A stretch of 63,449 nucleotides of DNA, filler included, from Gemmatimonadota bacterium (GCA_003697105.1; 7 parts of 7 records of this genome joined end to end with filler, not necessarily neighbours in it); one strand, 5' to 3'; shown: positions 11,220 to 56,376, counted from the whole stretch's first letter. Notes: generated by a model not told the origin, from the sequence alone. Translations and numbers: made by a program.

Positions 11220-11319
11220 NNNNNNNNNNNNNNNNNNNNNNNNNNNNNNNNNNNNNNNNNNNNTTAATTAATTAANNNNNNNNNNNNNNNNNNNNNNNNN
11301 NNNNNNNNNNNNNNNNNNN
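11220..11319. other. Artificial contig linker
   Basis: N-run containing TTAATTAATTAA (stops in six frames); identical linkers at 20420-20519, 29281-29380, 38326-38425, 56277-56376 and 60841-60940. Confidence 0.98.
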
Positions 11320-17600: not shown

Positions 17601-18102
17601 CCAGCGAATCACCGCGGATATCGTAGTAGGTAAAGGCAAGTGTTTTCACATTTTCGACCAAGGCGGTGGCATTGGGATACGTCCGGCTACCCTCCTCCGT
17701 GATGGTAAAATCTTCCCGAAACAGGGTATCATTTCGGACAAAATAGCGGATATGTTCCCCCACATCATTAAAATCGGCATCCCCGTAGCGGTAGGTGGAA
17801 TCATTCGCCACATTTTTGGAACTCAGGTCGGACATGAATTCAAGGGTATTGTAGTCGGTGGTAATGAAGGGGGTAATCAGGGTGCCCTCCGGACCCGTGC
17901 CGGCTTCGCGGAGTTCCCGAACCAGTAAATCGAGCATTGCCCGGGCATTTTGCTGGGTTTCGATCTTTAGCTGACCCCGGTTGTATGTTTCTTCGCTCGT
18001 GGTGGCGATCATTAAGATCACCCCAATCACCATGGCGATGATGGTAGCGGCAATGATGAGTTCCACAAGTGAAAATCCCCGGCGAGAGCGTGACACTGGC
18101 AT
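14629..18102 (-). CDS. Giant PilW-like minor pilin with Cys-rich region, Calx-beta repeats and cystine-knot-like C-terminus
   Basis: RRG|FSLVELII class III signal; LLVRELREAG; four Calx-beta-like repeats (ATNGSDY...IDDALGEGDETVILTL); terminal CVANGDPCKNNNECCSGNCVNNRGNKTC. Confidence 0.85.
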   Translation of the reverse strand: MPVSRSRRGFSLVELIIAATIIAMVIGVILMIATTSEETYNRGQLKIETQQNARAMLDLLVRELREAGTGPEGTLITPFITTDYNTLEFMSDLSSKNVANDSTYRYGDADFNDVGEHIRYFVRNDTLFREDFTITEEGSRTYPNATALVENVKTLAFTYYDIRGDSLALPISLEDRVNIRRVHVTLELKEDPTDSGENPRTWKLSTDIRLRQTLNWEEPPAPTIILGMAEGDPVPDITPLDSLGNTADTLYCGTPYSMTLNLYDEDAGIDSIEVYWVSAAGDTVDLSAYISDLQGKGSYDFGGETGTIDSAEVYYIGSQLDFDPYDYFGFCCAAMDGQLVVRVVDTTGRSSMVSRQAYIDCETAYEADTTSCLGGCQWDNLPSLAYDNFVDESNWDDKGAEWEITYDCVDCDDSSCDPSSCCTDPITGVTYPLGLDGKPICAEGNSYFRCYHGSGLQTVWGDSSSFDANTNTDYTIMMNFKWKGLDGGSAPQTALTFWYQDENNWARMSYQGNSGLALEGRVNGSNYKASLSSNASNGYFSTGEWGNMAVTVCADSNRIYGHIWRENGESLPDDRCDWFFHKDNVKSANISDYDAIASLGWGRFGFDPGQSGSGGICVDEVVVIENPSCPGTCGSSGGGGSSGGGGTQCPQPRPDIYVEVTDGNASETGPDNGVFTVRTSGSCLLRNTISVTYTVSGSATNGSDYTALSGSVSMSSGSSSVTIPVSVIDDALGEGDETVILTLIDSGNDYDLGGGSSSATLTIGDNDCVVTIAATANAAEPTDGTSGDETVGLFTVTRTVCTATDPLPVNFTIDNSASNTATTGIDYTNIGTSVTIPAGSASATIPITPNHDTLDEGNEVVTLKLAAGTGYEIGTPASATVTIVDNDATDPLVSIEATDPIATEAGPTSGTFIIRWTNGTPSYVDFDALASAGLVQFSDYSATINGTGYTLDHLNTNTYNISGVDSLVIVISALDDSDEEANETLTLALVDTPDYNVNPSASSDMVTIESDDCAIIVTLSALTNGAEPATDGSMRITASCAPTSNLTIGYSFNSGSSTATEGSDFTVTGFATILAGDLTTTLTISVNDDADDEGDETVVLQLDAGTGYTVGSPSTATITIVDNDAASCVANGDPCKNNNECCSGNCVNNRGNKTCQP

Positions 18103-20163: not shown

Positions 20164-20520
20164 AAATATATAACATTAAAAAAACCAGTATGTTACAGTA
20201 AAACATACTGGTTTTAAAAATGGTTTTGGTGGTTTTTATACACCGTTCTGCTATTGGTCGTTTTTATGATTTTGCTATTTTCAGGTAACTCCTTTTTAAT
20301 CAGTCTGTTACGTTGGTGTCATTTGACGCCATATTTTTTACACCACGGTTTCTATGATTTTTCAACGGGATGGATTGGATTCAGGTTGTATTTTTGTACT
20401 TTTTGCCAGAAATTTTTCCNNNNNNNNNNNNNNNNNNNNNNNNNNNNNNNNNNNNNNNNNNNNTTAATTAATTAANNNNNNNNNNNNNNNNNNNNNNNNN
20501 NNNNNNNNNNNNNNNNNNNA

Positions 20521-24554: not shown

Positions 24555-25679
24555 TTAACGGGTCAACAAGGTGATGTCATCCCCATTGCGATATAGGGAC
24601 GGCAGAAGATAGACATCTCCCTTCTGCCGGAGGTGGTCCAAAAGGTGATTGATGGTCAATCCCTGTGTTAGCTGCTGGTAAAAGGCTTCAAAAAATGTCA
24701 TCTTGGCGGAATTTCGTAGCGCATAAGGTATGGCAATGACGGCGGGGACACCGGCACTGATCAACCGTGAACCAATGCAACCAAACGGTTCATTGACGGG
24801 TTCAACCCGTTGGGGAGTTGTGAGGATCGTCAATGCCACTCGGTGGCGGTAGAGCATTTGCCCCAGCAATTTTGCCGAAAGCCGGTGACTAGAACCATCG
24901 CGTTTTTCCAGCACAACATACGCCATCCGTACCGGATCGATCACCATGCCTTTAAGAATTTGGTCGCGGTAGGCATGGTACGGATGATGATTTTCAATAA
25001 TGCTACCTTCCCGATCATCCCGGTCATAATAGCCCGGACCATCAAAATGAAAAATGTCAACCGCGGGTAAATTCCGGTTATCCAGCCGGTCAACCAGTGC
25101 CTCAAACGTAGGGGATTCCAATATTTCCACCGTAAGACCCGGTCGTGAAAGAGTCTCCTTAAAAGTAGTCAGATTGAGCGGCATTTCTGGATACGGTACA
25201 TCGTGGGGACGGCTCATCATTACCAGCACATGGCGAGTTGAGCGGCGGGGAATATAAAATGCTTTTTGGTCGGGGGTAAGACCTACGTAGGCCCGCTGGA
25301 TCGAAATCGGGGGAGTTTGTTGGGCTAAAAACGTATCATTTGCCGTTAGATCGGTCAAGAGTTCCCAAGGCAAGCTTAAAATTTCCGGGTGATCGGAAGC
25401 AATTATCAGCCGGCGGTCTTCGGTTGGGGTTTTAAGAAAGTGTAAAAAGAGGTCGTGGGCGGTGGATTCCAAAAAAACGGACTGAGCTAAACGGGTGCCC
25501 CACTGGACAAGTTGGTTGGTATCAAACGGAGGGGATGCCGTGAAAAATTGGTACATCGCCCGTTTTTCGTCCACAGGAAAGGGGTCGGTAAATCCTAAAC
25601 TCACCGGGGATTGGTGGGAACCAGCACGGAGAATAACCTGCGTGGGTTCAGGAAACGTTAATCGGAATTCCAAACTCAT
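24555..25679 (-). CDS. Stand-alone CHAT (caspase-like) domain protein, apparently catalytically inactive
   Basis: ILSLPWELL, VLVMMSRP, PTFEAL, GVPAVIAI, FFEAFYQQL; HFDGHG motif reads HFDGPG and the LNAC motif reads LTTP. Confidence 0.75.
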   Translation of the reverse strand: MSLEFRLTFPEPTQVILRAGSHQSPVSLGFTDPFPVDEKRAMYQFFTASPPFDTNQLVQWGTRLAQSVFLESTAHDLFLHFLKTPTEDRRLIIASDHPEILSLPWELLTDLTANDTFLAQQTPPISIQRAYVGLTPDQKAFYIPRRSTRHVLVMMSRPHDVPYPEMPLNLTTFKETLSRPGLTVEILESPTFEALVDRLDNRNLPAVDIFHFDGPGYYDRDDREGSIIENHHPYHAYRDQILKGMVIDPVRMAYVVLEKRDGSSHRLSAKLLGQMLYRHRVALTILTTPQRVEPVNEPFGCIGSRLISAGVPAVIAIPYALRNSAKMTFFEAFYQQLTQGLTINHLLDHLRQKGDVYLLPSLYRNGDDITLLTR

Positions 25680-25691
25680 AATGACTCCACG

Positions 25692-26609
25692 TTAGATGGC
25701 GATAATTTTTGCCACGTGTTCATCTAATTTGGTCATGGACATTCCCCCGGTGGATTCCATACCCAGTACCCGTTGTTGGTAATATTTGGATTTTGCAAAA
25801 AGTTGTAGGGCTTTGACTCGCTTGGGTAGAAATGGGTGTGTTTGTGTCAGTTCGGCAAATTTACCGATGGTTCCGCGCAGTTCGTCCAACTGTTTCAGAT
25901 ACTCATCCACATTGACCTGCTCATATAAATTTTGCGAACCCAATGCTAATTTGACTAAAGTACGCGTTGCGATAGTCTCATCTTGAGCGCAAATAAGACC
26001 GGCACGATCAGCGGTAATTTCAGACTTCCGGATCCAGTCCAGTAACATCATGCGTAGGGGTTGCGCCAACCACGCTATCAGCATTGCCGCTCCAGAAGCA
26101 AGAAACTGTGCGACGGTATGATACAGGACATGCCCGTTAGCAATATGCCCGCACTCATGTCCAATGACGCTTTTAAGCTCTTCCCGGCTGAGATGATCCA
26201 CCGTTGCCGAATGGATGATGATGATCGAATCATCTTCCAACCCCAACGTCATGGCATTTAGATACGGGTTTTGAATGACATACATGGGGGGCAGTACCAG
26301 ATGCAGTTCTTCGGCACATTCCATCCCGATTTGGTACAAATTAGAGAATTGCCGGGGAGTCACCTTTACGGCGTGTCCGAGAAGTTCCCCGCGCCAACTC
26401 TCCTTCCAGAAGCGAACGAGGGCGGAAATCGTAAGATTCAGGGGCTTAAGCCGTTGGAGGGTACGGAGGGCATCTTGATCAGGGCGGTACACATAGTCAC
26501 CGGAGGGCGCATCCTGCTGCTTCTGATGGCGATACGTCGAAAAGTCATCCGGTGTGCCGGTATTCGCTTTCATTTCTCGAACATAATTATTGAAGCTGAG
26601 ATCAACCAT
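25692..26609 (-). CDS. M48 family zinc metallopeptidase
   Basis: VIGHECGH, SEITADRAG, THP..KRV. Confidence 0.9.
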   Translation of the reverse strand: MVDLSFNNYVREMKANTGTPDDFSTYRHQKQQDAPSGDYVYRPDQDALRTLQRLKPLNLTISALVRFWKESWRGELLGHAVKVTPRQFSNLYQIGMECAEELHLVLPPMYVIQNPYLNAMTLGLEDDSIIIIHSATVDHLSREELKSVIGHECGHIANGHVLYHTVAQFLASGAAMLIAWLAQPLRMMLLDWIRKSEITADRAGLICAQDETIATRTLVKLALGSQNLYEQVNVDEYLKQLDELRGTIGKFAELTQTHPFLPKRVKALQLFAKSKYYQQRVLGMESTGGMSMTKLDEHVAKIIAI

Positions 26610-29280: not shown

Positions 29281-29380
29281 NNNNNNNNNNNNNNNNNNNN
29301 NNNNNNNNNNNNNNNNNNNNNNNNTTAATTAATTAANNNNNNNNNNNNNNNNNNNNNNNNNNNNNNNNNNNNNNNNNNNN

Positions 29381-29479
29381 CCTCTTGCTAATTTGGTTAG
29401 TATGAAAAGGGTTATCCCATTATTTAACACAAAAATACCGACCTAAAAAGAAAATTCTCACAGGTCAGGTGATAAGACA
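29381..29479 (-). mobile_element. End of a multicopy insertion sequence
   Basis: 29383-29479 is identical to 56377-56473; both are contig starts; reverse strand begins TGTCTTATCACC and ends in an RBS-like AGAGG. Confidence 0.75.
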
Positions 29480-29483
29480 CACT

Positions 29484-29517
29484 ATGAGCCATTGGGAGGC
29501 ATTCACCAATGGCTCAT
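29484..29517 (-). terminator. Hairpin downstream of the PhzF gene
   Basis: ATGAGCCATTGG-N10-CCAATGGCTCAT. Confidence 0.6.
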
Positions 29518-29522
29518 TTAAC

Positions 29523-30317
29523 TCAAAACCGGTTGATTACTCTTTCAGCATACAGCCGGGCATAGCCACTTAATTTAACCCGTTTTCCGGCGTTTTCACA
29601 CCATATTTCCCCTCCGCGTGCAGAAAGCTGGCGAGCGTACAACTTGTGGTTCCGAAAACGCTTTGCCCAATATGGGGTCAAGATGCAATGTGCCGATCCG
29701 GTAACCGCATCTTCTTTGTACCGTTCTTGGGGCAAAAAGTAGCGCGAGACAAAATCAGCCGTATCTCCCGGTGCCGTGACAATCACATTTGCCGGGTCGA
29801 TCCGGCGTAAAATATCAAAATTCGGGACTAATTGGCGAACCTCGGCTTCAGTATCAAATATTGCGAGATAGGTGCCGGTGGTCGCTTGCCAAATCTGGCG
29901 GGGAATATCGCCTAAACCGGTAATAAGTGCCCCGGGAAAGGTCTCGCACTCCCGTGCCGGAATCGCCGGTAGATGGATCATCACCCGCCCATCGTCCGTT
30001 CGAGATGCCATAATGACGTCTCCGGCGGTGCTTTTAAATTTGAGTACCACCTCTGCCGGCTGGCGTTGGAACATCACGTGTGCCACTGCCAGCGTACCAT
30101 GCCCGCACAAAAAAATCTCTTTGAGCGGGCTAAACCAACGAATTTCCACAGCCTCAGCGGTTTGAACCGCAAAGACCGTCACCGGTAGATAATGCTCTGC
30201 CGCCATCTGTTGCAATAGAGATTCCGGTAACCACGTTTCAAGCAGACAAACGCCCGCCGGATTCCCCGCAAATACCTTTGAAGTAAATGTATCAATGTGA
30301 TAAAATGGTATCGTCAT
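29523..30317 (-). CDS. PhzF family isomerase/epimerase-like protein
   Basis: IDTFTSKVFAGNPAGV, EIFLCGHGTLA, EDAVTGSAHC. Confidence 0.9.
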   Translation of the reverse strand: MTIPFYHIDTFTSKVFAGNPAGVCLLETWLPESLLQQMAAEHYLPVTVFAVQTAEAVEIRWFSPLKEIFLCGHGTLAVAHVMFQRQPAEVVLKFKSTAGDVIMASRTDDGRVMIHLPAIPARECETFPGALITGLGDIPRQIWQATTGTYLAIFDTEAEVRQLVPNFDILRRIDPANVIVTAPGDTADFVSRYFLPQERYKEDAVTGSAHCILTPYWAKRFRNHKLYARQLSARGGEIWCENAGKRVKLSGYARLYAERVINRF

Positions 30318-30375
30318 GGCGTTGTGATTGATGGTGTCTGGTTGGCGGTACGTCTCGAAACGAATTTTCGCTACA

Positions 30376-32391
30376 TTATCGCTTCAACAGATTTTTTAAG
30401 GCGTTACGAACCTCTTTCATATTCGGATACCGGTCTCCGCGGTCTAGTTTGACACAGGTTAGAATGATGTGGTCCAGTGTTCGTAATACTTCGGAATTGG
30501 CGTCGCTTTCTGTCTGTAAGAGTGGATCCAAATAGAGATGGTCATAGTTGATTTGCTCTGCTGTGTAGTATTGTACTAATTCGCTTTCCCGGGCGAAGAG
30601 CCGCCGTCCGGTGACAATCTCGTAAAACACAACCCCAAATGAGAAGAGATCGGAGCGAGGGTCTATTTTTTCACCGCGATGTTGTTCCGGGGACATATAA
30701 ATACCCGTCCCAACACGTTGTCCAACCGCCGTGACGGTGGAGCCGGCGATGTGCGCCACCCCAAAATCCGTAATTTTCACTTCTCCCCGGCTATTTACCA
30801 TAATATTGGCGGGTTTCAAATCGCGGTGGATAATTTCTTGCTGGTGCACTTCATACAAGGCATCGGCAACGCATGTCATAATGCGGATAGCCTCCGTAAG
30901 TTTCAGCCGTCCCCGTTCTTTCAAGGAGGGTCCATCCACATATTCCATGATAATACTTCGGCGTACTTCATCAAGGTCATAAATTTTGACAATATTGGGA
31001 TGATTCAATCCCGCCGCCGCTTTAGCTTCGGAAAAGAACCGGACGATTGCCCCAGAATCTTGGTCTTGTGCCGGAAGTAACTCCTTGATTGCGACCGTGC
31101 GAGCCAGCCGAGTATCGTGTGCTTTGTAAACCACCCCCATACCCCCCCGTCCGAGCTCTTCCAAAATCTGAAAACGGGGGGTTGCGGTGCCTTCATCCTC
31201 AGGAGCGTTAGATGAGGTGCGGGAGCTAACAAAGTTCTGAAATACACTGGAAAAAATCCGCTCGCCTTCCAAATATCCTTTGCGGTTCAAACTTTTGATG
31301 ATATGCTGTTCCGAACGGGTGATCTCCTCGGCATGTACCAGCTTAATCAGTACTTTTTTTTCGGCATTATCCAGATGTTGCCAAATGTACTCAAAATGAG
31401 CCTGCGTGCTGGTTTCAAAGGCGTCTTGTAGCTCCTTAAAATCCGACTCCATGGTTTGACTGGCATCTCGACGGTGTTCAAACAACTGGTAGCAGGCAAT
31501 TTGTAAAAAAAACGGGTGCAAGCCGGCTAACTGGCGAACAAACTGAACTTCTGCACAGGTCAGATCAATGCCATTTTTTTGGAATGGTTCGCGGATCAGC
31601 ATGAGAGCTTCGTTTTCCGAGAAGGGTTCCAGCACAATTGAGGAAAAAATATTGAAAAAAGGTGAACCGATAATCTCATCCATTGCCACACTTTGTAAAT
31701 CGCGGGCAGAACTCGTGATATAAGCAACCTTAAAGTTATTGGCAATCCCCCTCAAGAAGGCAAAAAAGTCTAAATTAAAGCTCCGGTTGCGTGTGACCAA
31801 ATCAAACTCATCAAAAAAGAAGATTAGAACTTTGTCTTTATAGCGTTCAATTTTACGCACGAAGCCATCATAATCGGCACTGGTAATTTGGTTGGAGTGT
31901 CCCACAAAGGTGGATGTTGATCCGGGCTCCTCCGGGGGATGTTCCGAGTTAGGAAAGGGACCCACCAACAACCGTTTCACTTTGCTCAAAAAGCTTTCCG
32001 GTGCTGCGGGCGTACCGGTTTCCTTATTTTTAGCGGCAAGTTGTGCTTCTTCGTGGGTTAATTTTTCCGAGAGCAACATCAGAAATTCTTTGGGCGAGAG
32101 TTGCCCATAAATGGAAAAATCAACCGAGATAAATAGGTAGTTTTCCCAATCATCCAAATAGGTTTTGCGAACATCTGGGTGATAAATATAGTGCATCAGA
32201 GAGGATTTACCGATCCGTCTATCGCCGACAATCGAAACGGATTGCGGTCTGCCGGGGGTACTAATACGTTCGTAAATTTTGCGGATGATCTTTTTCCGCC
32301 CGTAAAAATCGGCGGGGTTTTCTATTTTCGCGCGGTTCGTATACGGATTTTGTCTCATATCAGATGAATTTAGCCATACGGTTAATGTCAA
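30376..32391 (-). CDS. STAND-type AAA ATPase fused to a C-terminal Hanks Ser/Thr protein kinase
   Basis: NPY...FYGR, GDRRIGKSS, FFFDEFD, GLHPFFLQ; then LGRGGMGVVY, VAIK, HRDLKPAN, DFG, YMSPEQ. Confidence 0.9.
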   Translation of the reverse strand: MTLTVWLNSSDMRQNPYTNRAKIENPADFYGRKKIIRKIYERISTPGRPQSVSIVGDRRIGKSSLMHYIYHPDVRKTYLDDWENYLFISVDFSIYGQLSPKEFLMLLSEKLTHEEAQLAAKNKETGTPAAPESFLSKVKRLLVGPFPNSEHPPEEPGSTSTFVGHSNQITSADYDGFVRKIERYKDKVLIFFFDEFDLVTRNRSFNLDFFAFLRGIANNFKVAYITSSARDLQSVAMDEIIGSPFFNIFSSIVLEPFSENEALMLIREPFQKNGIDLTCAEVQFVRQLAGLHPFFLQIACYQLFEHRRDASQTMESDFKELQDAFETSTQAHFEYIWQHLDNAEKKVLIKLVHAEEITRSEQHIIKSLNRKGYLEGERIFSSVFQNFVSSRTSSNAPEDEGTATPRFQILEELGRGGMGVVYKAHDTRLARTVAIKELLPAQDQDSGAIVRFFSEAKAAAGLNHPNIVKIYDLDEVRRSIIMEYVDGPSLKERGRLKLTEAIRIMTCVADALYEVHQQEIIHRDLKPANIMVNSRGEVKITDFGVAHIAGSTVTAVGQRVGTGIYMSPEQHRGEKIDPRSDLFSFGVVFYEIVTGRRLFARESELVQYYTAEQINYDHLYLDPLLQTESDANSEVLRTLDHIILTCVKLDRGDRYPNMKEVRNALKNLLKR

Positions 32392-32466
32392 GTAGCAGTG
32401 GTAACGGGTAAAAAGGCGTTTTTAAGTGCGGTATCGCACCCGCGATTCGTCGGGATCAAATTGGAA

Positions 32467-35400
32467 TCAAGTCAGGAAAGAACTCGAATGTGTGCCCTCT
32501 TCTCGTAGGGTTTTCCAAATAGAATGTTCTTCCCGAACCCATCGCCGGATTAAATTGATTTGGAAGCGGTACGTTTCCGGCGGGGATTCCTTCCTGATTA
32601 TATCTTTTTTTAGCAATAAATCAAGAGTTTTCGCAACCGATTGTGGCTGAACCTGTAACCCATTGAATTGGTGAGCATTTTCGATGACCGCTCGACTTTG
32701 GAAGGACGCGGTATCCGATTCCACCAACTCGCAAATGAGCGAGAGATTGAGGCGATCTTCTGATTCAAATTCTTCATTCCACAGATAAATTAAATGGGGT
32801 GGCGGGTTCTTGATCAATTCTTCTACAGCTTCATCCACATCCTCTATTTCGACCACACTGCGATGCTCATCGTTTAAGATGGTGATTAAATTCCGGCAAA
32901 TACATTGGATAAAATACGGATGCCCGGCGGCCAGCTCGTAGATGCGGCGGATGGAATCCTCTTCGTATATGACACTGCCTTGTACGGGGCGGGTGATCAG
33001 TTGCACGGATTCATCATAATTGAGCAAACCGATCTTTCGATAGCGCGCCACATTGAACATTTCCGGTAAATACTGCTCTTTCAAGGATTCCAACATCTGG
33101 GAGCCCACAAAAATGAAGGTCAGATAGCTCCGTTGTTCCATCAAGTGCCGAAAATAGCGGTAAATATCGGTGCTAAGGTTATCCTGATGGACTTTACGAC
33201 TGAGCAACTCGTACTCATCAAAAAGCAGAATGAGGGAGCGTTCCCCAATAACTTCAGCCACATCATCCAAAAAGGTATTGTACAAGGCATACGGGTTTTG
33301 AGAGCGGTCATCAAAGTTATAGGTTTGCATAACCATTTTTCGCAGGGAAATTGTGGGACCCACCGTGGTTTGGTAGCGGATAAACGGGTTACCCATTTCA
33401 TCGGGGTCCACCTTCGCAATGGCTTTTTCAATCCGGCGGACGAGCCGTTCGTGTTCCAAGGGTTTTTCGATCACTTTGCTGGGATGCGGCTTGACCAACG
33501 GGGGTTTTTCCGGGTTGACCAGATATAAGAGGGGGATATTGGAGAGTTTCGGGAAGTCATCTAGCAGGTCGATAAGTTGCTGCACCAAGTCCTGATCACT
33601 TTCCAAATCCATGATGATCAGCAGGGGGCGTTCTTTTTGGGCAAGCGCCGTCATTTCCGCTAAATTTTCGGCGGCTAAGACTTCAAATTTTTCCACGCGT
33701 AGCGCCACCGACACGAGCCGGATAGTGGGGTGATCTTGGCTTAACATCAAAACTTTGCGGTAACGGTGGACAGATGGCAATTCAATGGATTCCAATTGTT
33801 CGGCAATGTTAATGCTAATTTTTTTGAAGAAATCGTGTGTATCCACATCTGCCATTTCTTGCATGTCCACAATCACCGGAATAAATTGTTCTCCTAACTC
33901 ACCATTTCGGATTTGGTAAAGGGTGCTGGTTTTACCGACCCGGCGTTCGCCGTAGAGTACCAGCGCAACATCATGCCGACGTGACTCAAGTTCCGCTTGA
34001 ATAAACTGGAATACATCTTCTCGCCCGAAAAACATCGTTTTATCTTTGATCGGGTTACCGGTGATGTACATGTTGGTGATTTTGGTCTCTTGGGATCGTT
34101 CACCAAACAGGTCGATTTGTCCCACAATTTGGCGGTACAACTGGTCAATCCGTTCCTGTATCCGATCTTCATAGATGGAACGCTGTAGCAAGAATTGCCG
34201 GAGGGGTAAAATGGCTATGGGGTGCGAGCCGCTGAGAAACGTATAAATTTGGTTTTGTACCTCTTGAGGGATCGCGCCATCCGTGACCAAAAACGCAATT
34301 CGGGTATTGTATGCCGCTTCTTCTGCCGGATGTGTGATCCGGTGGCGTAATTGCAAAATGGTATCCAGGGTTAATTTTTGGTTCGTCAAGCAGGTGACCA
34401 ACGCATGGTTGAATTTCGCATATTCATGGGTTTCGGGGAAGGTTAGGCGTATGTCTGCGCTGGAGAGCCGTTCTACGTGGGCACCCAAACCTTGGAAGAA
34501 ACGGCGGGTCACCTCGACCAGTTCTTCAATCCGAAACGCTTCTTCCATCGCGAGGGTGATTTTAGCGATTACATCTTTATCGGTGGCTTGTAACAATGCT
34601 TTTTCAAAAATCGCAATAGACCGCTTATCGTATTTTTTGGTAATGGCATATACTTCTGCCAAACCCATTAAGGCAACGGCATTTTCAGGTTGTTCTTTCA
34701 AAGCCAGTTGGTAGAGTTCCTCAGCACGATCGTAATTGCCTTGAATAAAGGCATTATGTGCCCGTTCCACATTGAGCATTTGTTGCCGTTCATGCAGGGT
34801 ACGTCCCAACCAGACCGTCAAGATAATCCCCAGAACGATGACCCCGAGGGCAATGGAAAGTGATATCCGGTTCCGCTCCTGGATCCGCTGTTGCTGGATT
34901 TGGGTACGGGTAAATTGCAGTTCCATCTGTGCCATCTCAAACAGCGGGCTGTGATCGATCACACGTTCCAGTAAGGTTTCCGCCGCTTGCCAGTGGGCAT
35001 TATCCATTGCGGTGGATGCTTGCTGATACAAAGAATCCATCTGCTCAATTTTATCCGCCAGCGAATCCATCGGGGACAGCAGGTTGCGCAATTGGCGTTT
35101 TGCCACGGCATAGCGCCCGCGCATAACGTTAATTTGTATCAGAATGCGCCGGGCGTCATCATTATGGCGTTGCCGTTGCAGAGCGTTTTCAGCGGCTTCG
35201 GCGGCACGGTCATAATCTTGGGTTTTAAAATATGCCTGTGCTAACAAAGTGTAAATGTTTGCCAACTTCTCCGGTTTTAAGCGGCCGGTATCCGCTTGAT
35301 TGAGATACAATTCCAGAGTCAGGATAGTTTCCGAATAATGTTCCAACTGAAAATGGGTCCATGCCAGCCAGTAACTGGCGATATAATGAGGTATCAAGGG

Positions 35401-35712
35401 GAACTCGCTTTTATCTTGCATCAATTTCAGCGCGTGCTCCAAATGGGCTAATGCCGACGGGTATTCACCGAGTTGTGCCAAACAACGCCCCAGATGGCTA
35501 ATGTAAACCTCGTCATTACTCGCCAATTCAACAGCCCGTTGGTAATAAGGTAAAGCACCCGCCAAATCACCGTTGGTATATGCGGCATAGCCCTGTTGCC
35601 AGGCATCAAAGGCGGGATCGCCACCGCCATAGACCGGCAAAGCGGTACACCACAGCCACACGCCAATAAAGTAAAGACCCCAATGAAAGGGTTTGAATGG
35701 GATTGGCATCAC
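32467..35712 (-). CDS. Membrane-anchored TPR protein with cytoplasmic STAND-type ATPase containing a receiver-like insertion
   Basis: Signal peptide, TPRs, one TM (ISLSIALGVIVLGIILTVWLG), YITGNPI...FFGRE, GERRVGKTS, LLFDEYE, AGHPYFIQ, C-terminal wHTH-like region. Confidence 0.82.
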   Translation of the reverse strand: MMPIPFKPFHWGLYFIGVWLWCTALPVYGGGDPAFDAWQQGYAAYTNGDLAGALPYYQRAVELASNDEVYISHLGRCLAQLGEYPSALAHLEHALKLMQDKSEFPLIPHYIASYWLAWTHFQLEHYSETILTLELYLNQADTGRLKPEKLANIYTLLAQAYFKTQDYDRAAEAAENALQRQRHNDDARRILIQINVMRGRYAVAKRQLRNLLSPMDSLADKIEQMDSLYQQASTAMDNAHWQAAETLLERVIDHSPLFEMAQMELQFTRTQIQQQRIQERNRISLSIALGVIVLGIILTVWLGRTLHERQQMLNVERAHNAFIQGNYDRAEELYQLALKEQPENAVALMGLAEVYAITKKYDKRSIAIFEKALLQATDKDVIAKITLAMEEAFRIEELVEVTRRFFQGLGAHVERLSSADIRLTFPETHEYAKFNHALVTCLTNQKLTLDTILQLRHRITHPAEEAAYNTRIAFLVTDGAIPQEVQNQIYTFLSGSHPIAILPLRQFLLQRSIYEDRIQERIDQLYRQIVGQIDLFGERSQETKITNMYITGNPIKDKTMFFGREDVFQFIQAELESRRHDVALVLYGERRVGKTSTLYQIRNGELGEQFIPVIVDMQEMADVDTHDFFKKISINIAEQLESIELPSVHRYRKVLMLSQDHPTIRLVSVALRVEKFEVLAAENLAEMTALAQKERPLLIIMDLESDQDLVQQLIDLLDDFPKLSNIPLLYLVNPEKPPLVKPHPSKVIEKPLEHERLVRRIEKAIAKVDPDEMGNPFIRYQTTVGPTISLRKMVMQTYNFDDRSQNPYALYNTFLDDVAEVIGERSLILLFDEYELLSRKVHQDNLSTDIYRYFRHLMEQRSYLTFIFVGSQMLESLKEQYLPEMFNVARYRKIGLLNYDESVQLITRPVQGSVIYEEDSIRRIYELAAGHPYFIQCICRNLITILNDEHRSVVEIEDVDEAVEELIKNPPPHLIYLWNEEFESEDRLNLSLICELVESDTASFQSRAVIENAHQFNGLQVQPQSVAKTLDLLLKKDIIRKESPPETYRFQINLIRRWVREEHSIWKTLREEGTHSSSFLT

Positions 35713-35739
35713 TATGTTGCCTCCTACCCGCGGATTCCC

Positions 35740-38196
35740 CTATTCTGCCATCTTTTTGATTTGGTCTTGAATATCATCACGGAGTTGGCGGGCTTCCGGG
35801 GTGTTTTGGTAATCCAAAGCTTGCTGGATGAGACGGAGTGCCTCCGGCATATTCCCCTGTTGAAACGCGGATCGAGCATTGGTATAGGATTCTTGATACC
35901 GAATCCAGTTTCGCGCGTTTTGGGCACGCTGTTCCAACACGGGTTTGACCTCGGCGGAGGCATAGGTTTTCGCGGTTTCAAAGGCATGAATTGCCGCCTC
36001 CCAATCACCATCAATCACATGTGCGTCACCTAAACTGGTCCATGCCGTGACCAATTTGGCACGAACTTCTTCGGCATTAGGACGAAGGTTCAGAGCGTTT
36101 TCCAAGGCGTCAATACTGCCTTCCCAATCGTTATCGGTAAGCTTTTCCAATGCGGTTTGGTAGTATTGTTCAAACGCTTTGGCTTTGCGTTCTTCTTTTT
36201 GGGCATTCAAGTAGGTATGTCGCCACGAGTCATACAGGGCGATATCCGTGCTGAGGACCCGCCGAATCCGATTTTTCGCGGGCGGGCGTGGACGCTGGGG
36301 GGGCGTAAACTTCACGGCGAAGTACTTCGCACGGGCATCTTTGGTGAAGAGGATGTCCGGGTTTTGGCGGTATAATTCCAAACCGGTCGTCCACGCCTCA
36401 AAAAAGCCATCCTGATCGATCTTTCTTAAAGCTAGGGGTATCCAAAGGTGGTTATCCCGTTCGATAAATTCAAAGCGCGTCACCAGATACGGAGGGATCT
36501 CCTGCAATTTTCGGTCAGACGGTACACCGCTATCAAACATGACTAACAATTCATCGGGGAACGCGAGAATTGCGGTGTTGATTTGGTGGTTTTCCAGCAA
36601 GGTGACCACCAAAGTCGTGATGTCATCAAAATCGCCGGTTGGTGGCGACTCTGACAAGAGTTCGAGGGGATATTTGACGATGTTCCGTTGGAGTACTTTG
36701 GCATGGCGGTAGGGGATTTCGGGGTCGGGTTGGTACGCCAATCCGGTCGCTTGCAAGGTGCAGTAGATTTGCATGGCGGTGATGATATTTTCCGGCAAAT
36801 CAATAATCAGGTCGTCACTAAGAATCAACTGGACATAGGAATTAATCCACTCGTGGGTGGGGGTGATGAAGTGGGCAAGGCGTTCTTCGCTCTCCCACAG
36901 GCATTTGCCACGACGATAAATGGTAAATTCGGTCTCGTAGGTGGTGGGTAAATAGGATTGGTTTGCATACGAGATGGTGATCTGAACCGGTTGTTTCCGA
37001 TCCGCTTCCAATTGAATAACATCTTCGGGAAGGGGGACTTTCACTACTTCTGAGGTCACCCGGCGCGGCTCAATCGATTTTCGTTCTTGCGAGATATACG
37101 GCACCATCATGGTGCCATCCAGATTGATCGGGACTTGGGTTTCAATAATACACTCAATGGTTTCGTTGGCTTCGTTTTCGAGTTCTAACATTGCCACCGG
37201 TTGATTATTGGCATATTGGGAGGCGTACACATCGGTGATATGCATATTCCGAATGCGGATTGAAGCGGGTATCCCAGAAAGTGTCAGGGACAAAAAATGG
37301 GTTCCGGGCAGTGTCGGCGGGCTTTCATAGGTATAGTCCACCCGGATCATTTCAAAAGGTTGGATGAGCCGGAACGGCAATTTCAGGCTGGTTCCAAATG
37401 CTTGTGTCGGGGCTTCATCATTGTGGCGCTCCAGCCGCAGACCGGCTCTTAGCCCGAGCACATCAAACAGATAAACCTCACCACCCATTGCCACGTAATC
37501 ACTCCATTCCAACGTCACCAAGGGATCGGAAAGACGAACACCGTACCACGACCGCGAATTGAAAAGGGTGTAACTGGCACCATAGTGCATCAATTGGGGC
37601 AAATAGATGTCTTCGTGATCAAGTCCCGAATATTTGACTTCAGAATCTGTTAAGTCCTCCCAAACGACTCCCAGCCGTAACCGCTCATTGTAGTTGTACA
37701 TCAAGCCCACATCAATACCATCACCGGTGGATTCGCCCTGCTTCACACCGTCCCAATCCATCTGTTGAAAAATGCTCTTAAAACTAATACCCACACTCAA
37801 ACCGCCGTATAGCGCTACGGCTAGCGAGGCATACAACCGTCCATCCTGAAATACCAGTTCCTTGTCATCATAGCCGTAGGTATAAAAATTAAAGCCGAGC
37901 ATAGAATGACGCCAAAAGGGGAATGCCAGTGCCAAATTTAGATTTTCAATACCGGCACCGAATCGATTATCTGTGTACGTACTGGTAAGTTGTCCGGTAC
38001 TTAAATCCGCCAACCCGGCGGGATTCCAATAAATAGCATTGGCATCATTCGAGACGGCGACATATGCTCCCCCCAGCCCAATCGGGCGGGCGCCCATCGG
38101 TACCTGCTGCCGGTTCAGGGCAAAGCTAGGCAACGAAAAGCCTGTGATGCCCAAAAGGAGGACCCACAAAACGAAACATTGTGAAAATCGCGTCAT
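35740..38196 (-). CDS. PorV/PorQ-like outer-membrane beta-barrel fused to a transglutaminase-like region and TPRs
   Basis: GARPIGLGGAYVAVSNDANAIYWNPAGLA; amphipathic beta strands; YQPDP...KYPLELL...GDFDD; C-terminal TPR helices. Confidence 0.75.
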   Translation of the reverse strand: MTRFSQCFVLWVLLLGITGFSLPSFALNRQQVPMGARPIGLGGAYVAVSNDANAIYWNPAGLADLSTGQLTSTYTDNRFGAGIENLNLALAFPFWRHSMLGFNFYTYGYDDKELVFQDGRLYASLAVALYGGLSVGISFKSIFQQMDWDGVKQGESTGDGIDVGLMYNYNERLRLGVVWEDLTDSEVKYSGLDHEDIYLPQLMHYGASYTLFNSRSWYGVRLSDPLVTLEWSDYVAMGGEVYLFDVLGLRAGLRLERHNDEAPTQAFGTSLKLPFRLIQPFEMIRVDYTYESPPTLPGTHFLSLTLSGIPASIRIRNMHITDVYASQYANNQPVAMLELENEANETIECIIETQVPINLDGTMMVPYISQERKSIEPRRVTSEVVKVPLPEDVIQLEADRKQPVQITISYANQSYLPTTYETEFTIYRRGKCLWESEERLAHFITPTHEWINSYVQLILSDDLIIDLPENIITAMQIYCTLQATGLAYQPDPEIPYRHAKVLQRNIVKYPLELLSESPPTGDFDDITTLVVTLLENHQINTAILAFPDELLVMFDSGVPSDRKLQEIPPYLVTRFEFIERDNHLWIPLALRKIDQDGFFEAWTTGLELYRQNPDILFTKDARAKYFAVKFTPPQRPRPPAKNRIRRVLSTDIALYDSWRHTYLNAQKEERKAKAFEQYYQTALEKLTDNDWEGSIDALENALNLRPNAEEVRAKLVTAWTSLGDAHVIDGDWEAAIHAFETAKTYASAEVKPVLEQRAQNARNWIRYQESYTNARSAFQQGNMPEALRLIQQALDYQNTPEARQLRDDIQDQIKKMAE

Positions 38197-38862
38197 GCGC
38201 TAGAGTAAATCCCACAAGAGAAAAAGAGACAAGGAATAGATCGGATAGAGAGTAATAATAATCGATCCAGCAGTATTCCGAAAGATCAAATTCTGAAGTC
38301 TCCGCAGAAGTTTTTCGCTGAATACNNNNNNNNNNNNNNNNNNNNNNNNNNNNNNNNNNNNNNNNNNNNTTAATTAATTAANNNNNNNNNNNNNNNNNNN
38401 NNNNNNNNNNNNNNNNNNNNNNNNNAACCATTCAAATAGTGTGATAATTGCATGATAGCTCCTTTCAGTAAAGTGAGCAATAATCAAACTATTTGATTCA
38501 ATTTTATTCAAGTGCAGATTTCTGTGGAGACTTCAGAGTGATATATTAATCCATCCACGGTGCGCAACCCCGCTAACCGGAACTACGTTGGCGAAGACAT
38601 GCTTTAACATGAGGCGAATCTCCGGCAATAGTTGAAAACCTCACATGTTTCCGCTTATTCCCCATGATTACCCCGTTTTCAGTGCTGAAAACGGGGTTTT
38701 CGTTTTCGGAGTCGATAACGACGCTATCGCCGCTTTGTCTGGTTCCGAATTCGTTGCTCCGGGCAATCATGGAACAAAAGTCTTGACGGTTTACCTGAGA
38801 AGAGTTATTATCATAATTAGATAATTTTTTAATTAACTAACTATAGTATCGCGAAACAGCTC

Positions 38863-43963: not shown

Positions 43964-44560
43964 TCACAATTTGAATTTACGGCCCTGTTGGATTAATTTT
44001 TTCAATTTTTTATCCCCGATCCAGACCTTGCGATTGGTTTCCAAATCGCTTAGTTCCAGATCGATTTGATAAAATACAACTTGCTGTTTGCCCTCCTGAT
44101 CGACAATCGACTGGATCGTGCCGCTCAGCATAAAATCCGCCCCGGTTTCTTGTTTCCAGCGGGCGCGGGTTTCTTCGGAGGCAAACTCTTGCTGGTCGGC
44201 GCGTTCTTGACGGATGTCATCGCGCATGGCGCCACTTTGCACCATTTCCACCAGACCGGAATTGATCAACGCCCGCTCAATCTCATTGATAAATGTATCG
44301 ATCGCAATGTGTTCGTGGCTCCGGTTGCGGATATTCCCCACAATAATGACCGGTTGTCGGGCATTTTCGGTGGTGAACGTCGCCAACCACGGGTGATTTA
44401 GCGCATCGGCGATCATTTCTTCCGCAACTAAGCGAGAATCGGTGTCATTCCATTTCCCGCTGAGGTCGGTGACACTCTGCGGGTCAAGGCGGGTCACATC
44501 TGTGCGGGCACACCCGGAGACCCACACCACCAGCAACATCCAAATATGAATACGCAACAT
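43964..44560 (-). CDS. LpoB-family lipoprotein (penicillin-binding protein activator-like), paralog 2
   Basis: VSGC lipobox; DLSGKWNDTDSRLVAEEMI; GADFMLSGTI. Confidence 0.8.
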   Translation of the reverse strand: MLRIHIWMLLVVWVSGCARTDVTRLDPQSVTDLSGKWNDTDSRLVAEEMIADALNHPWLATFTTENARQPVIIVGNIRNRSHEHIAIDTFINEIERALINSGLVEMVQSGAMRDDIRQERADQQEFASEETRARWKQETGADFMLSGTIQSIVDQEGKQQVVFYQIDLELSDLETNRKVWIGDKKLKKLIQQGRKFKL

Positions 44561-44626
44561 GGCTCAAACCCATTATAAATACGAACAGCGGAGGTATTCT
44601 CCGCCGCTCACTCATAAAAACAGAGA

Positions 44627-45214
44627 CTAATCAATTAACTTTTTAATTTTTTTATTACCAATCCAGACCTTTTGGTTGGTTTCCATGTTCGTCAGTTCCA
44701 GATCGACCTGATAGAACATCACTTTGCGATTACCGCTGGCGTCTTCGATGGCATTGATCGTGCCGCTCAACATAAAATCCGCACCGGTTTCTTGCTTCCA
44801 GCGGGCGCGGGTTTCTTCGGAGGCAAACTCTTGCTGGTCGGCGCGTTCTTTACGGATATCATCACGCATGGCGCCGCTTTGCACCATTTCCACCAGACCG
44901 GAATTGATAAAGGCGCGTTCTAAATCTTTAATAAATGTATCTTCGCTGATATGTTCCCGAGTTTTGTTGTACACATTGCCCACAATCACGACCGGCTCCC
45001 GGTTATGTTGCGTTTTGAATTTGGTCAACCACGGGCGGGAGAGCGCATCGGCGATCATTTCTTCCGCAACTAAGCGAGAATCGGTGTCATTCCATTTTCC
45101 ACTCAGGTCTGTCACCATCGTCGGGTCCAGCCGGGTCACTTGTTTACCACCGCTACAACTCACCAAAAGCACTGCACCGACGATCCATACCAAGGCAAAT
45201 TTAATATTTTTCAT
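44627..45214 (-). CDS. LpoB-family lipoprotein, paralog 1
   Basis: LVSC lipobox; same motifs as 43964-44560. Confidence 0.8.
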   Translation of the reverse strand: MKNIKFALVWIVGAVLLVSCSGGKQVTRLDPTMVTDLSGKWNDTDSRLVAEEMIADALSRPWLTKFKTQHNREPVVIVGNVYNKTREHISEDTFIKDLERAFINSGLVEMVQSGAMRDDIRKERADQQEFASEETRARWKQETGADFMLSGTINAIEDASGNRKVMFYQVDLELTNMETNQKVWIGNKKIKKLID

Positions 45215-56276: not shown

Positions 56277-56376
56277 NNNNNNNNNNNNNNNNNNNNNNNN
56301 NNNNNNNNNNNNNNNNNNNNTTAATTAATTAANNNNNNNNNNNNNNNNNNNNNNNNNNNNNNNNNNNNNNNNNNNN

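Follow-up and report, generated by a model that had tools for sequence, protein, structure and literature searches.

The window analysed here, a stretch of 63,449 nt from the genome of a hot-spring bacterium of the Gemmatimonadota (GCA_003697105.1), consists of several contigs joined by artificial linkers, so that apparent flanking genes in it are not true neighbours. The four genes described below occupy one complete contig (Table 1), bounded by linkers of the form N44-TTAATTAATTAA-N44 at positions 29281-29380 and 38326-38425. ORF calling returned four ORFs, all on the minus strand, whose bounds coincided exactly with those of the original prediction, which had described four closely spaced, co-directional genes at 29523-38196. 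The intergenic gaps were 27 nt (genes 1 and 2), about 108 nt (genes 2 and 3) and 58 nt (genes 3 and 4), with no break in GC content across the four genes. No phage or mobile-element genes were visible on the contig, which carries just these four. Logan contigs of two runs (X1 and X2) that belong to a single study spanned positions 29452-38325 plus 3,926 nt more on the gene 1 side, and bridged the gaps between genes 1 and 2 and between genes 2 and 3; the gap between genes 3 and 4 was bridged as well, in X2 by means of a second contig of 2238 nt. The contig in the window terminates 142 nt past gene 4 and 129 nt ahead of gene 1, so the window does not show where the operon stops on either side or which genes flank it.

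Table 1. Coordinates of the four-gene contig, its ORFs and the regions assigned within each product.
Feature	Position	Strand	Details
Complete contig holding all four genes	29381..38325	.	8,945 nt
Gene 1, outer-membrane PorV/PorQ-like protein with long C-terminal tail	35740..38196	-	818 aa
Gene 1 residues 30-305, PorV/PorQ-like beta-barrel region	37282..38109	-	NF033709 profile match
Gene 1 residues ~311-427, Ig-like beta-sandwich	36916..37266	-	AF2 model; VIA Z up to 12.6, model residues 7-123
Gene 1 residues ~434-634, transglutaminase/LapG-like cysteine-protease fold	36295..36897	-	AF2, Foldseek, VIA
Gene 1 residues ~664-818, TPR region	35743..36207	-	TPR_2 E 9.8e-9; TPR_16, TPR_12
Gene 2, bitopic membrane "receptor-type" STAND NTPase	32467..35712	-	1081 aa
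Gene 2 residues ~10-274, hydrophobic signal-like stretch, then TPRs	34891..35685	-	putatively periplasmic
Gene 2 residues 283-301, single strong TM helix	34810..34866	-	Kyte-Doolittle 19-residue mean 2.53; within AF2 long helix 278-323
Gene 2 residues 310-380, TPRs	34573..34785	-	TPR_16 317-373, E 5e-20 for whole protein; putatively cytoplasmic
Gene 2 residues 385-546, domain first called "REase-like"	34075..34560	-	three remote homologues
Gene 2 residues 547-646, STAND NTPase, first half	33775..34074	-	Walker A GERRVGKTS; sequence, AF2
Gene 2 residues 647-799, receiver (REC)-like insert separating Walker A from Walker B	33316..33774	-	sub-threshold profile matches
Gene 2 residues 800-1081, STAND NTPase, second half	32470..33315	-	Walker B LLFDEYE, GHPYF motif, helical/winged-helix tail
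Gene 3 ORF	30376..32391	-	671 aa
Gene 3 residues 1-400, nSTAND2 NTPase	31192..32391	-	PF20702; Walker A GDRRIGKSS, Walker B FFFDEFD
Gene 3 residues 401-671, Hanks-type Ser/Thr kinase	30379..31191	-	Pkinase E 1.8e-49
Gene 4, PhzF-family isomerase-like protein	29523..30317	-	264 aa

The product of gene 1 begins with a hydrophobic signal-like segment (residues 9-27), followed by the barrel region, which aligned to positions 7-323 of the 326 in the PorV_fam profile NF033709 (E 9.7e-21) with a score of 74.7 bits, below the curated cut-off of 90, so that the threshold of the PorV/PorQ family was not reached; one homologue (P0078) carries the NCBI name PorV/PorQ family protein. The AF2 model of the tail (pLDDT 87.5) contained a transglutaminase-like fold. 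Foldseek placed transglutaminase 2 at ranks 1 and 2 (E 4.2e-5), with a TM-score of only 0.20, and VIA aligned 3kd4_B (Z 9.3, 131 residues aligned) and LapG 4fgo (Z 8.5, 137 residues, rmsd 3.4); these moderate scores support a papain-like transglutaminase core fold for the central domain. The domains originally proposed for gene 1, a PorV/PorQ-like barrel, a transglutaminase-like region and TPRs, were thus recovered, the first with a score under the cut-off, the second by AF2, Foldseek and VIA, and the C-terminal TPRs by profile. The Ig-like domain is an addition to that list.

Homologues of gene 1 retained a Cys-His-Asp set, the Cys of a GDCDD motif and the His being present in all 17 (12/12 from genomes and 5/5 from databases). 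In the window copy, Phe replaces the Cys (GDFDD) and Glu replaces the His; judging by the loss of these two residues, its protease-like domain is catalytically dead, which could be a sign of decay and not of a new function. Its 818-codon frame is intact and retains every part, from the barrel and the Ig-like domain to the transglutaminase-like fold and the TPRs.

Gene 2 has the Walker A and Walker B motifs, the helical/winged-helix module and the profile match of a STAND P-loop NTPase, and we assign it to this class. AAA_14 scored 28.0 bits against a cut-off of 27, with ATPase_2, AAA_16 and nSTAND6 under their cut-offs, homologues carrying AAA_22/nSTAND1 were matched at E 2e-78, and AF2 modelled the P-loop module with pLDDT 85-98. 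A search of 5.8 billion proteins for relatives of full-length gene 2 returned none except its own copy. The N-terminal hydrophobic stretch (residues 13-27) is weak, with a 19-residue mean of 1.26 and a 15-residue mean of 1.71, and TPRs were located at residues 38-260 and 310-380. Profiles, hydropathy and AF2 together bore out the predicted order of signal-like segment, TPRs, one TM helix, further TPRs and STAND ATPase. The exception was the "REase-like region" (residues 385-546), for which no match was found in Pfam or NCBIfam, no PDB sequence match below E 0.89 and no lead in the ESM Atlas; AF2 was unreliable there, with a pLDDT below 50, a value range that it also gave for the receiver-like insert. 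Two of the three remote homologues of this domain carry it directly ahead of a STAND NTPase.

The receiver-like insert, about 153 aa long and located inside the NTPase, is an addition to the original prediction and was absent from 73 of the 73 homologues examined. All its REC matches fall under the curated thresholds, including those to PF00072 (E 9.6e-4; 19.7 bits, cut-off 30.2) and to NF045717 (E 2.9e-6, profile positions 3-116 of 117). Among 26 PDB sequence matches, 22 were named response regulators or fusions and one was a de novo protein, with a best E of 0.0095. In the alignment with this de novo protein (9xzo), the Asp in IIMDLES is aligned with that in LILTDINM, and EKPL with TKPF; we take this Asp to be the phospho-acceptor and the Lys of EKPL to be the conserved receiver Lys. 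Neither the first acidic pair nor the Thr/Ser of the receiver pocket is retained.

The nearest homologues of gene 2 (P0006-P0008) share its layout, with a signal-like segment, a large N-terminal region, one TM helix and a STAND, and among the 53 gene-2-type ORFs not cut by a contig edge, at least one TM segment was predicted in 44 and at least five in 34. The gene 2 clade is membrane-bound and made up mostly of membrane proteins. From the TM helix and the layout of the family, the N-terminus of gene 2 would be periplasmic and its STAND cytoplasmic, and the topology originally put forward fits this family. The charges beside the TM helix leave the orientation undecided, and a TPR plus TM unit 27% identical to that of gene 2 was found on the cytoplasmic side of the membrane at loci L150 and L151, which counts against periplasmic TPRs.

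Gene 3 matched the nSTAND2 family PF20702 with 128.5 bits (cut-off 24) and Pkinase with 169 bits (cut-off 31.7), in agreement with its earlier description as a second STAND ATPase fused to an intact Ser/Thr kinase. All the kinase motifs are readable (glycine loop GRGGMG, VAIK, HRDLKPAN, DFG, SPE), and by this complete catalytic set the kinase is intact. The protein has no sensor domain of its own. Its true start is probably the ATG at 32358, because the database copy (P0101) is 660 aa long. Gene 4, which had been named PhzF, matched PF02567 with 140.6 bits (cut-off 27) and TIGR00654 with 81.9 bits (cut-off 76.2), so the name holds. However, the linkage between PhzF and the STANDs that had been assumed was not found elsewhere: PhzF was absent from 80 of 80 STAND loci, and from all 160 related loci when the 80 fetched with gene 1 are included. 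PhzF is probably a passenger.

A search of metagenome loci for the association of genes 2 and 3 gave a different picture, and one in line with the STAND-STAND pairing of the original prediction and with the neighbourhood check that it had suggested. A gene-3-type nSTAND2 gene on the same strand as the gene-2-type STAND and at most 2.5 kb from it was present in 44 of 80 loci, and four further loci (L107, L112, L113 and L133) were found to be paired on inspection; the control, 80 loci fetched with gene 1, contained neither gene-2-type nor gene-3-type STANDs in any case. In 30 of the remaining 32 loci a contig end was no more than 900 nt away from the gene, on one side or on both, no A ORF was called in L153, and L125 is the sole assessable unpaired locus among the 80. 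The 79 loci with an A gene fell into 60 clusters at 90% identity, 35 of them including a paired locus. Genes 2 and 3 are thus one instance of a conserved two-gene module that recurs in many uncultivated bacteria.

Within this module, the output is variable. An nSTAND2 plus kinase protein adjoins the membrane STAND in 16 loci, and the domains found in the 43 gene-3-type partners included Pkinase (13), CHAT (7), TIR (4), Trans_reg_C (4) and cyclase (3), with wHTH, caspase and EAD7 among the outputs of partners elsewhere. In locus L110, up to four gene-3-type proteins flank one membrane STAND, as expected of one sensor feeding several effectors. Across 36 gene-2-type proteins the Walker A G/K and Walker B D-E residues did not vary, and across the 43 gene-3-type proteins their conservation was at least 90%; by these motifs, both NTPases look active. 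The STANDs of genes 2 and 3 aligned with each other in BLASTP over 191 residues (E 1e-7, 23% identity) and, on this similarity, are paralogous, which fits a mixed ring such as that proposed for a published two-gene nSTAND2 operon (PMC8195603).

Gene 1 was found in other surroundings. A beta-propeller gene lay upstream of its homologue in 13 of 14 loci, coding for a product with a FlgD_ig/Por_Secre_tail C-terminal domain, and an inner-membrane CHASE2 receptor gene lay downstream of the homologue in 12 of the 14, the position that gene 2 has here. The cassette in relatives thus comprises a surface beta-propeller with a T9SS-type C-terminal domain, the PorV-protease-TPR protein, a small TPR protein and the CHASE2 receptor, whose cytoplasmic outputs vary (CHAT, SpoIIE or sigma-54). 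In the window, the contig stops 129 nt upstream of gene 1, short of where such a beta-propeller gene would lie. No STAND was detected near the gene 1 homologues (0/14 loci), nor any gene 1 homologue near the STAND pairs (0/80 loci), so the arrangement of genes 1, 2 and 3 is known from this organism only, in two samples of one study, and the proposed gene 1-STAND linkage has no counterpart in either set. The CHASE2 receptor that follows the gene 1 homologues gives indirect support for an envelope link.

The view that no described system has such an architecture was too strong. [quoted passage not shown] As in that system, genes 2 and 3 are adjacent STANDs of related families, one of them, the nSTAND2 protein, with a variable effector. 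The present pair differs from it in that both P-loops are intact, with motifs conserved across the 36 and 43 relatives, and in that the effector on the nSTAND2 partner is a kinase, replaced in relatives by CHAT, TIR, cyclase or wHTH, neither GT4 nor HEPN being among the 25 families matched by the 43 gene-3-type partners. In addition, the gene-2-type partner is a membrane protein, and the nSTAND2 model was matched by no more than 4 of the 36 gene-2-type proteins.

Searches against PADLOC-DB 2.0, which covers Avs, bNACHT and others, returned no family for gene 2, and for gene 3 all 25 matches listed, of 34, were on the kinase domain (residues 386-670) and none on the STAND. In plant sensor/helper NLR pairs and in bacterial Avs and bNACHT, a STAND acts as the sensor and, by oligomerising, switches on another STAND or an attached effector. 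Genes 2 and 3 would share this logic but, unlike those cytosolic proteins, gene 2 would span the membrane and expose an extracytoplasmic domain.

For gene 1, the closest parallels are with T9SS shuttle proteins and with the Lap system. Its N-terminal 300 residues match the PorV/PorQ profile end to end, and the gene upstream of its relatives encodes a FlgD_ig/Por_Secre_tail protein, the type of cargo that PorV binds; in the excerpts of papers matching PorV and PorQ, the terms "transglutaminase-like" and "CHASE2" did not occur. Gene 1 departs from PorV in its sub-cut-off score and in its 500-residue tail with the Ig-like, protease-like and TPR parts, which PorV lacks. In the Lap adhesin system, the inner-membrane receptor LapD controls LapG, a transglutaminase-like cysteine protease of the periplasm. 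The gene 1 central domain resembles LapG in the structural alignment given above and in the Cys-His-Asp set kept by its homologues, which are encoded between the gene for a surface protein and that for an inner-membrane receptor, the same logic of surface protein, periplasmic protease and receptor. Unlike LapG, the domain is fused to an outer-membrane barrel and, in the window copy, is devoid of the Cys and the His, and the receptor is a CHASE2 protein (relatives) or a STAND (window) instead of LapD.

Taken as a whole, the data lead us to favour, with fair though not strong confidence, a two-protein STAND signalling module formed by genes 2 and 3, with gene 1 as the likeliest periplasmic input and PhzF as a passenger. 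Gene 2 would be an inner-membrane receptor-type STAND, with its first ~280 residues and their TPRs outside the cytoplasm and its NTPase inside, and gene 3 a soluble paralogous STAND carrying the Ser/Thr kinase. Binding of a protein ligand to the periplasmic TPRs of gene 2 would free the NTP-dependent oligomerisation of its cytoplasmic STAND, with which the STAND of gene 3 would co-assemble; the clustered kinase domains would then trans-phosphorylate, become active and phosphorylate targets, in either regulation or defence. The receiver-like insert may act as an additional gate on this switch. That gene 1 provides the periplasmic input has roughly even chances, its candidacy coming from the 27-nt gap to gene 2, a junction bridged in the assemblies of two runs, and from the CHASE2 receptor that follows its homologues in 12 of 14 loci.

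Gene 1 may, on the other hand, be functionally unrelated to the STAND pair, as the remnant of a cassette whose receptor was displaced by a mobile STAND pair and whose Cys/His loss is decay, a tentative reading to which we give appreciable weight, short of an even chance. It would account for the conservation of the cassette in relatives, with the beta-propeller upstream in 13 and CHASE2 downstream in 12 of the 14 loci, for the mutual absence of gene 1 and STANDs from each other's loci and for the loss of both catalytic residues in the window copy only, and the published two-gene STAND operon is described as mobile (PMC8195603). It accounts less well for a frame in which all four domains are preserved, for the position of gene 1 close to gene 2 on the same strand and for the uniform GC content; moreover, the putatively periplasmic TPRs of gene 2 sit where relatives have a secreted TPR protein and then a membrane receptor. 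The complete model of the original prediction, where all four genes including PhzF make up a dedicated trans-envelope operon with outer-membrane TPRs contacting inner-membrane TPRs, is improbable: the genes are co-directional, tightly spaced and on one contig in the assemblies of two runs, but PhzF is missing from 160 of 160 related loci, the link with gene 1 is unique to this organism, and the contig ends close to the outer genes on both sides.

A two-protein STAND module is also compatible with a role in conflict, anti-phage or programmed-death, in place of housekeeping signalling; an invader or damage to the envelope would be sensed by the membrane STAND, and the effector would be the kinase. 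We consider this role rather unlikely. The CHAT, TIR, caspase and EAD7 domains of nSTAND2 partners elsewhere are typical of conflict systems (PMC8195603 and PMC7159879), but the same clade has the classical signalling outputs SpoIIE, cyclase, sigma-54 activator and wHTH. The kinase models of PD-T4-6 (E 2.8e-73) and mad6, both defence systems, match the gene 3 kinase; such matches are generic to Hanks kinases, and no PADLOC model matches either STAND. The NCBIfam model DS8_antiphage gave a weak match on the P-loop of gene 2 (E 1.6e-5; 22.9 bits, cut-off 790). The absence of visible phage or mobile-element genes speaks against such a role, though on a contig of four genes in all.

In conclusion, the STAND pair of genes 2 and 3 is a variant of known two-gene STAND systems, here uniquely preceded by an outer-membrane protein. 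A trans-envelope link between gene 1 and the STAND pair is plausible and, if true, would mean that a signal is relayed from the cell envelope to the cytoplasm.

The four genes that the original prediction had placed in one co-directional series coincide with four minus-strand ORFs, separated by gaps of 27 nt (genes 1 and 2), about 108 nt (genes 2 and 3, assuming the gene 3 ATG at 32358, the start used in its 660-aa database copy P0101), and 58 nt (genes 3 and 4). Six linkers of the form N44-TTAATTAATTAA-N44 were found in the window, against 0.03 expected by chance; the window is a concatenation of seven contigs, and gene order across the linkers is not biological. The cluster occupies one entire contig (29381–38325; 8,945 nt), and its apparent flanks (T2SS ATPase, ArsR/SdpI, CHAT, and M48 genes) are uninformative because they belong to other contigs. 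A reading with divergent and convergent neighbours was dropped, with contig ends lying close to both outer genes. Assembled contigs of two sequencing runs from one hot-spring study also covered the cluster, one of 12,800 nt in run X1 (29452–38325) and two in run X2 (10,430 nt, 31822–38325; 2,238 nt, 29452–31689), and the cluster is therefore not an assembly chimera. As X1 may be the source of the window, only X2 represents a second look, from the same study; a further run, X3, covered a small share of the stretch only. The 12,800 and 10,430 nt contigs run 3,926 nt past the end of gene 1, a JGI contig of 13,024 nt has been recorded as well, and all assemblies stop just after the PhzF gene in a branching stretch (29415–29481) of high depth (about 72x versus about 23x) with several alternative continuations, which is probably a short repeat common to several places or organisms. 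The promoter and terminator scan gave consensus matches only, with terminators at chance level (11 found versus 10.6 expected).

Positions of the cluster genes and of the other features discussed (window coordinates unless a metagenome locus is named)
Feature	Position	Strand	Description
Gene 1 (P0001)	35740–38196	−	ORF, 818 aa
Gene 2 (P0002)	32467–35712	−	ORF, 1081 aa
Gene 3 (P0003)	30376–32391	−	ORF, 671 aa
Gene 4 (P0004)	29523–30317	−	ORF, 264 aa
Receiver-like insert	33316–33774	−	gene 2 residues 647–799, between Walker A and Walker B of the STAND
Artificial linkers	11220–11319, 20420–20519, 29281–29380, 38326–38425, 56277–56376, 60841–60940		
Gene 1-type cassette	L001:6342–15121, L006:6774–15349, L003:547–10361		11 more loci within L001–L014

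Conservation of the whole operon was seen in part: genes of the gene 2 and gene 3 types recur as a pair, but gene 1 and PhzF are not linked to the STANDs. Scanning metagenomes with the gene 2 STAND yielded 80 loci, and in 44 of them a gene-3-type nSTAND2 gene was found within 2.5 kb on the same strand, the two genes usually overlapping or standing a few bases apart, with the partner located downstream or, in kinase forms, upstream. Four further loci (L107, L112, L113, L133) are paired when tblastn rows or cut-off kinase fragments are counted. Among the 32 unpaired loci, 30 have a contig end no more than 900 nt from the gene on one or both sides, and a single locus (L125) had both sides visible without a partner. 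The 79 loci with a gene-2-type ORF (none was called in L153) form 60 clusters at 90% identity, 35 of which hold a paired locus. As a control, neither STAND type was detected in any of the 80 loci fetched with gene 1 (L001–L080), where the sole gene 3 matches were to the kinase domain, in four loci. The STAND pair is well supported.

Walker motifs are kept in both STAND clades. At least one TM segment was predicted in 44 of the 53 gene-2-clade ORFs not cut by a contig edge, and at least five in 34; on these predictions, the clade is overwhelmingly membrane-bound. The outputs carried by 43 nSTAND2 partners included Pkinase (13), CHAT (7), TIR (4), Trans_reg_C (4), and cyclase (3) domains, as well as caspase and EAD7. 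Up to four partners flank one membrane STAND, as in L110, where they are a bare nSTAND2 protein and nSTAND2 fusions to CHAT, wHTH, and cyclase domains. Arrays of one polytopic membrane STAND with three or four nSTAND2 genes were observed at L110:6487–16449 and in L098, L099, L105, L108, and L140. Of the 68 Pfam families listed, none of the 25 most frequent corresponded to the N-terminal domain of the membrane STANDs, which has 5–9 TM segments. In addition, a single protein at L147:5349–8120 combines EAD7, nSTAND2, Ser/Thr kinase, and TIR domains, and its gene adjoins those for a membrane STAND, an nSTAND2-wHTH protein, and a kinase-TPR protein.

In the window copy of this pair, analysis of gene 2 upheld the TPRs (residues 38–260 and 310–380), the single transmembrane segment (a very hydrophobic helix at 283–301, besides a short hydrophobic N-terminal stretch at 13–27), and the C-terminal STAND NTPase (Walker A GERRVGKTS, Walker B LLFDEYE) of the predicted layout, but not its REase-like region. 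The latter segment (385–546) had no match in Pfam, NCBIfam, PDB sequences (best E 0.89), or the ESM Atlas (best 0.79, no family), and its AF2 model had a pLDDT under 50; a search of 1.84 billion representatives returned only three remote relatives, two of them with a STAND NTPase directly after the domain. With one TM helix between the first TPR block and an ATPase that has to be in the cytoplasm, this block should be periplasmic. The closest relatives, P0006–P0008, back this placing with an agreeing layout (a signal-like segment, 450–600 residues, one TM helix, and then the STAND), with the caveat that a 27% identical TPR and TM unit is found on the STAND side of the membrane in loci L150/L151. 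Among 5.8 billion proteins, full-length gene 2 had no relative except its own copy, and the remaining matches were confined to the STAND (about 25% of the query).

The STAND of gene 2 also harbours an insert across which the alignments of its nearest homologues jump, and which is absent from all 73 homologous ORFs in which both NTPase halves were located, their spacer being of −3 to 25 residues. Matches of the insert to receiver models were weak, consistent, and over the full length of the models (PF00072, E 9.6e-4; DivK-like NF045717, E 2.9e-6, over 3–116 of 117; PhoB, E 2.5e-4), and 22 of its 26 PDB sequence matches (best E 0.0095) were response regulators or fusions of one. Alignment with 9xzo places the Asp of the insert's IIMDLES under the Asp of LILTDINM and a Lys-Pro under that of TKPF, the Asp and Lys being presumably the phospho-acceptor and the conserved lysine. 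The remaining pocket residues are not kept, and the AF2 model of the insert had a pLDDT under 50. From these matches, a divergent receiver domain is probable, not proven. STAND NTPases with an inserted receiver domain were not described in the literature searched by text, and we know of no precedent for a receiver-like domain between the Walker A and Walker B motifs of such an NTPase.

Gene 3 indeed encodes a STAND fused to an intact Ser/Thr kinase, with an nSTAND2 module (128.5 bits) and, after it, a Hanks kinase (169 bits) in which every catalytic motif is present, and with no repeat or other sensor domain; the PADLOC matches listed were all to the kinase domain. Its nSTAND2 module belongs to a very large family (695 matches among 8,000 candidates scored), whose members carry fusions with kinase, SpoIIE, cyclase, or sigma-54 activator domains, and the STANDs of genes 2 and 3 are distant paralogues (E 1e-7). 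The assignment of gene 4 to PhzF agrees with its match to the PhzF-family profile.

In the gene 1 protein, a hydrophobic signal-like segment is followed by residues 30–305, which align along the whole PorV/PorQ family profile (E 9.7e-21), with a score of 74.7 bits, under the curated cut-off of 90; TPRs are located at the C-terminus, and full-length homologues showed 25–30% identity (P0077–P0081), one of them named as a PorV/PorQ family protein of a KSB1 bacterium. The model of residues 305–665, built with 12 homologues, was confident (pLDDT 87.5, pTM 0.86) and revealed an Ig-like sandwich (VIA Z up to 12.6) and an alpha/beta domain similar to the putative protease 3kd4_B (VIA Z 9.3, 131 aligned) and to the transglutaminase-like protease LapG (4fgo; VIA Z 8.5, 137 aligned), while the first-ranked Foldseek match of the model was transglutaminase 2 (E 4.2e-5, low TM-score). 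The transglutaminase-like region originally proposed is therefore present in these models, but its catalytic residues have been lost: the GDCDD motif and a downstream His are kept in all 12 genome homologues and all five database homologues, whereas the window copy has GDFDD and a Glu, and is thus a pseudo-enzyme.

Elsewhere, gene 1 homologues belong to a different cassette, with the order beta-propeller gene, PorV-protease-TPR gene (barrel, Ig-like domain, LapG-like Cys-His-Asp protease, and TPRs), in many cases a gene for a small secreted TPR protein, and a CHASE2 receptor gene. In 13 of 14 loci with full-length homologues, the upstream gene codes for a beta-propeller protein (Reg_prop or FG-GAP) that terminates in FlgD_ig/Por_Secre_tail, and an inner-membrane CHASE2 receptor, with a varying cytoplasmic output (CHAT, SpoIIE, or a sigma-54 AAA+ activator), is encoded downstream in 12 of the 14, L011 ending at a contig edge and L007 being without a receptor; excluding L004 (genome G005, flagged unpublished), the counts are 12/13 and 11/13. 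The hosts are KSB1, Zixibacteria, Eisenbacteria, and related MAGs, and the RpoD of the window reaches no more than 49% identity to that of any of five genomes with gene 1 homologues (the 49% value from G005). The arrangement resembles the logic of Lap adhesin release, no description of a PorV-protease/CHASE2 cassette was found in the literature searched by text, and it has the appearance of an envelope system of FCB-group candidate phyla that is as yet undescribed. No match to P0002 or to the STAND of P0003 was detected in the 14 loci, nor to P0001 or P0004 in the 80 STAND loci, which does not fit a single dedicated operon of all four genes.

Other contigs of the window encode a stand-alone CHAT protein (374 aa) directly downstream of an M48 peptidase gene (24555–26609), the CHAT part of which resembles the CHAT output of the cassette CHASE2 receptors, a cyclophilin-FG-GAP protein with a Por_Secre_tail/FlgD_ig C-terminal domain (46141–48546), and a Reg_prop-Y_Y_Y-SpoIIE receptor (56839–60105). 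Also present are a protein of 1157 aa that has Calx-beta domains and, at its N-terminus, a pilin-type methylation motif (14629–18102) and two tandem genes for LpoB-like lipoproteins (43964–45214), adjoining those of a TPR protein and a DUF1425-like protein.

In print, the closest description, in the available parts of PMC8195603, is a mobile two-gene operon in which both proteins are nSTAND2-family STAND NTPases, predicted to form a toroidal hetero-multimer, and one partner is inactive and carries GT4 or HEPN. Compared with that operon as presented there, both STANDs of the window look active, the effector repertoire of the window-type pair differs, and one of its partners is a membrane protein. 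Pairs of a membrane STAND with nSTAND2 effectors were not described in the literature searched by text, although the source data of Figure 6 in PMC8195603 may list such cases. Partners with CHAT, TIR, caspase, or EAD7 domains suggest a conflict system like those surveyed by the Aravind group, as outlined in the accessible parts of PMC8195603 and PMC7159879; those with SpoIIE, cyclase, sigma-54, or wHTH domains speak for signalling.

What is established is the inventory of parts, the conservation of the pairing, and the membrane-bound nature of the sensor clade; on balance, we favour genes 2 and 3 as a STAND module with kinase output. In such a module, the TPRs of gene 2, if periplasmic as its predicted topology suggests, would bind a ligand, NTP would drive co-assembly of the two STANDs, and the kinase would be activated by proximity. 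Within this explanation, coupling to gene 1, which would give the latter a role in signalling, could go either way. The sole comparative argument for it is positional equivalence: the slot after gene 1 holds gene 2 in place of the CHASE2 receptor, and gene 2, like the usual occupant, would sit in the inner membrane and combine a protein-binding domain in the periplasm with a switch in the cytoplasm. Since only 129 nt of contig precede gene 1, the lack of an upstream gene does not count against coupling. The small secreted TPR proteins of the cassette gave no P0002 match in L001–L080 (E 1e-5), and complex prediction of gene 1 residues 305–818 with gene 2 residues 29–282, run without controls, gave a score of 0.00 in each of its two runs, which counts neither for nor against an interaction.

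A whole-envelope relay of the "receptor-NLR plus helper-NLR" type, converting an outer cue into Ser/Thr phosphorylation inside, with the pair as a widespread undescribed class, seems to us rather unlikely. In such a relay, the outer-membrane PorV-like pseudo-protease would hand a surface or cargo signal via periplasmic TPRs to the transmembrane STAND, the built-in receiver domain would gate its NTPase, and the STAND would nucleate a mixed ring with the sensor-less nSTAND2-kinase. This envelope-spanning three-gene reading rests on one organism. Taken more broadly, pairs of a membrane STAND and an nSTAND2 effector would form a widespread and undescribed class, serving transmembrane STAND-based signalling or immunity among uncultivated bacteria.

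To our knowledge, all bacterial STAND or NLR-like proteins examined to date detect their triggers within the cell. With a STAND clade that resides in the membrane and often bears large extracytoplasmic domains, NLR-type switching would also cover extracytoplasmic signals, and the membrane STAND, almost always encoded next to a sensor-less nSTAND2 output carrier, would together with it be the prokaryotic equivalent of a sensor/helper NLR pair. The two twists unique to the window, the receiver-like domain inside the NTPase and the outer-membrane partner gene, make these hypotheses testable.
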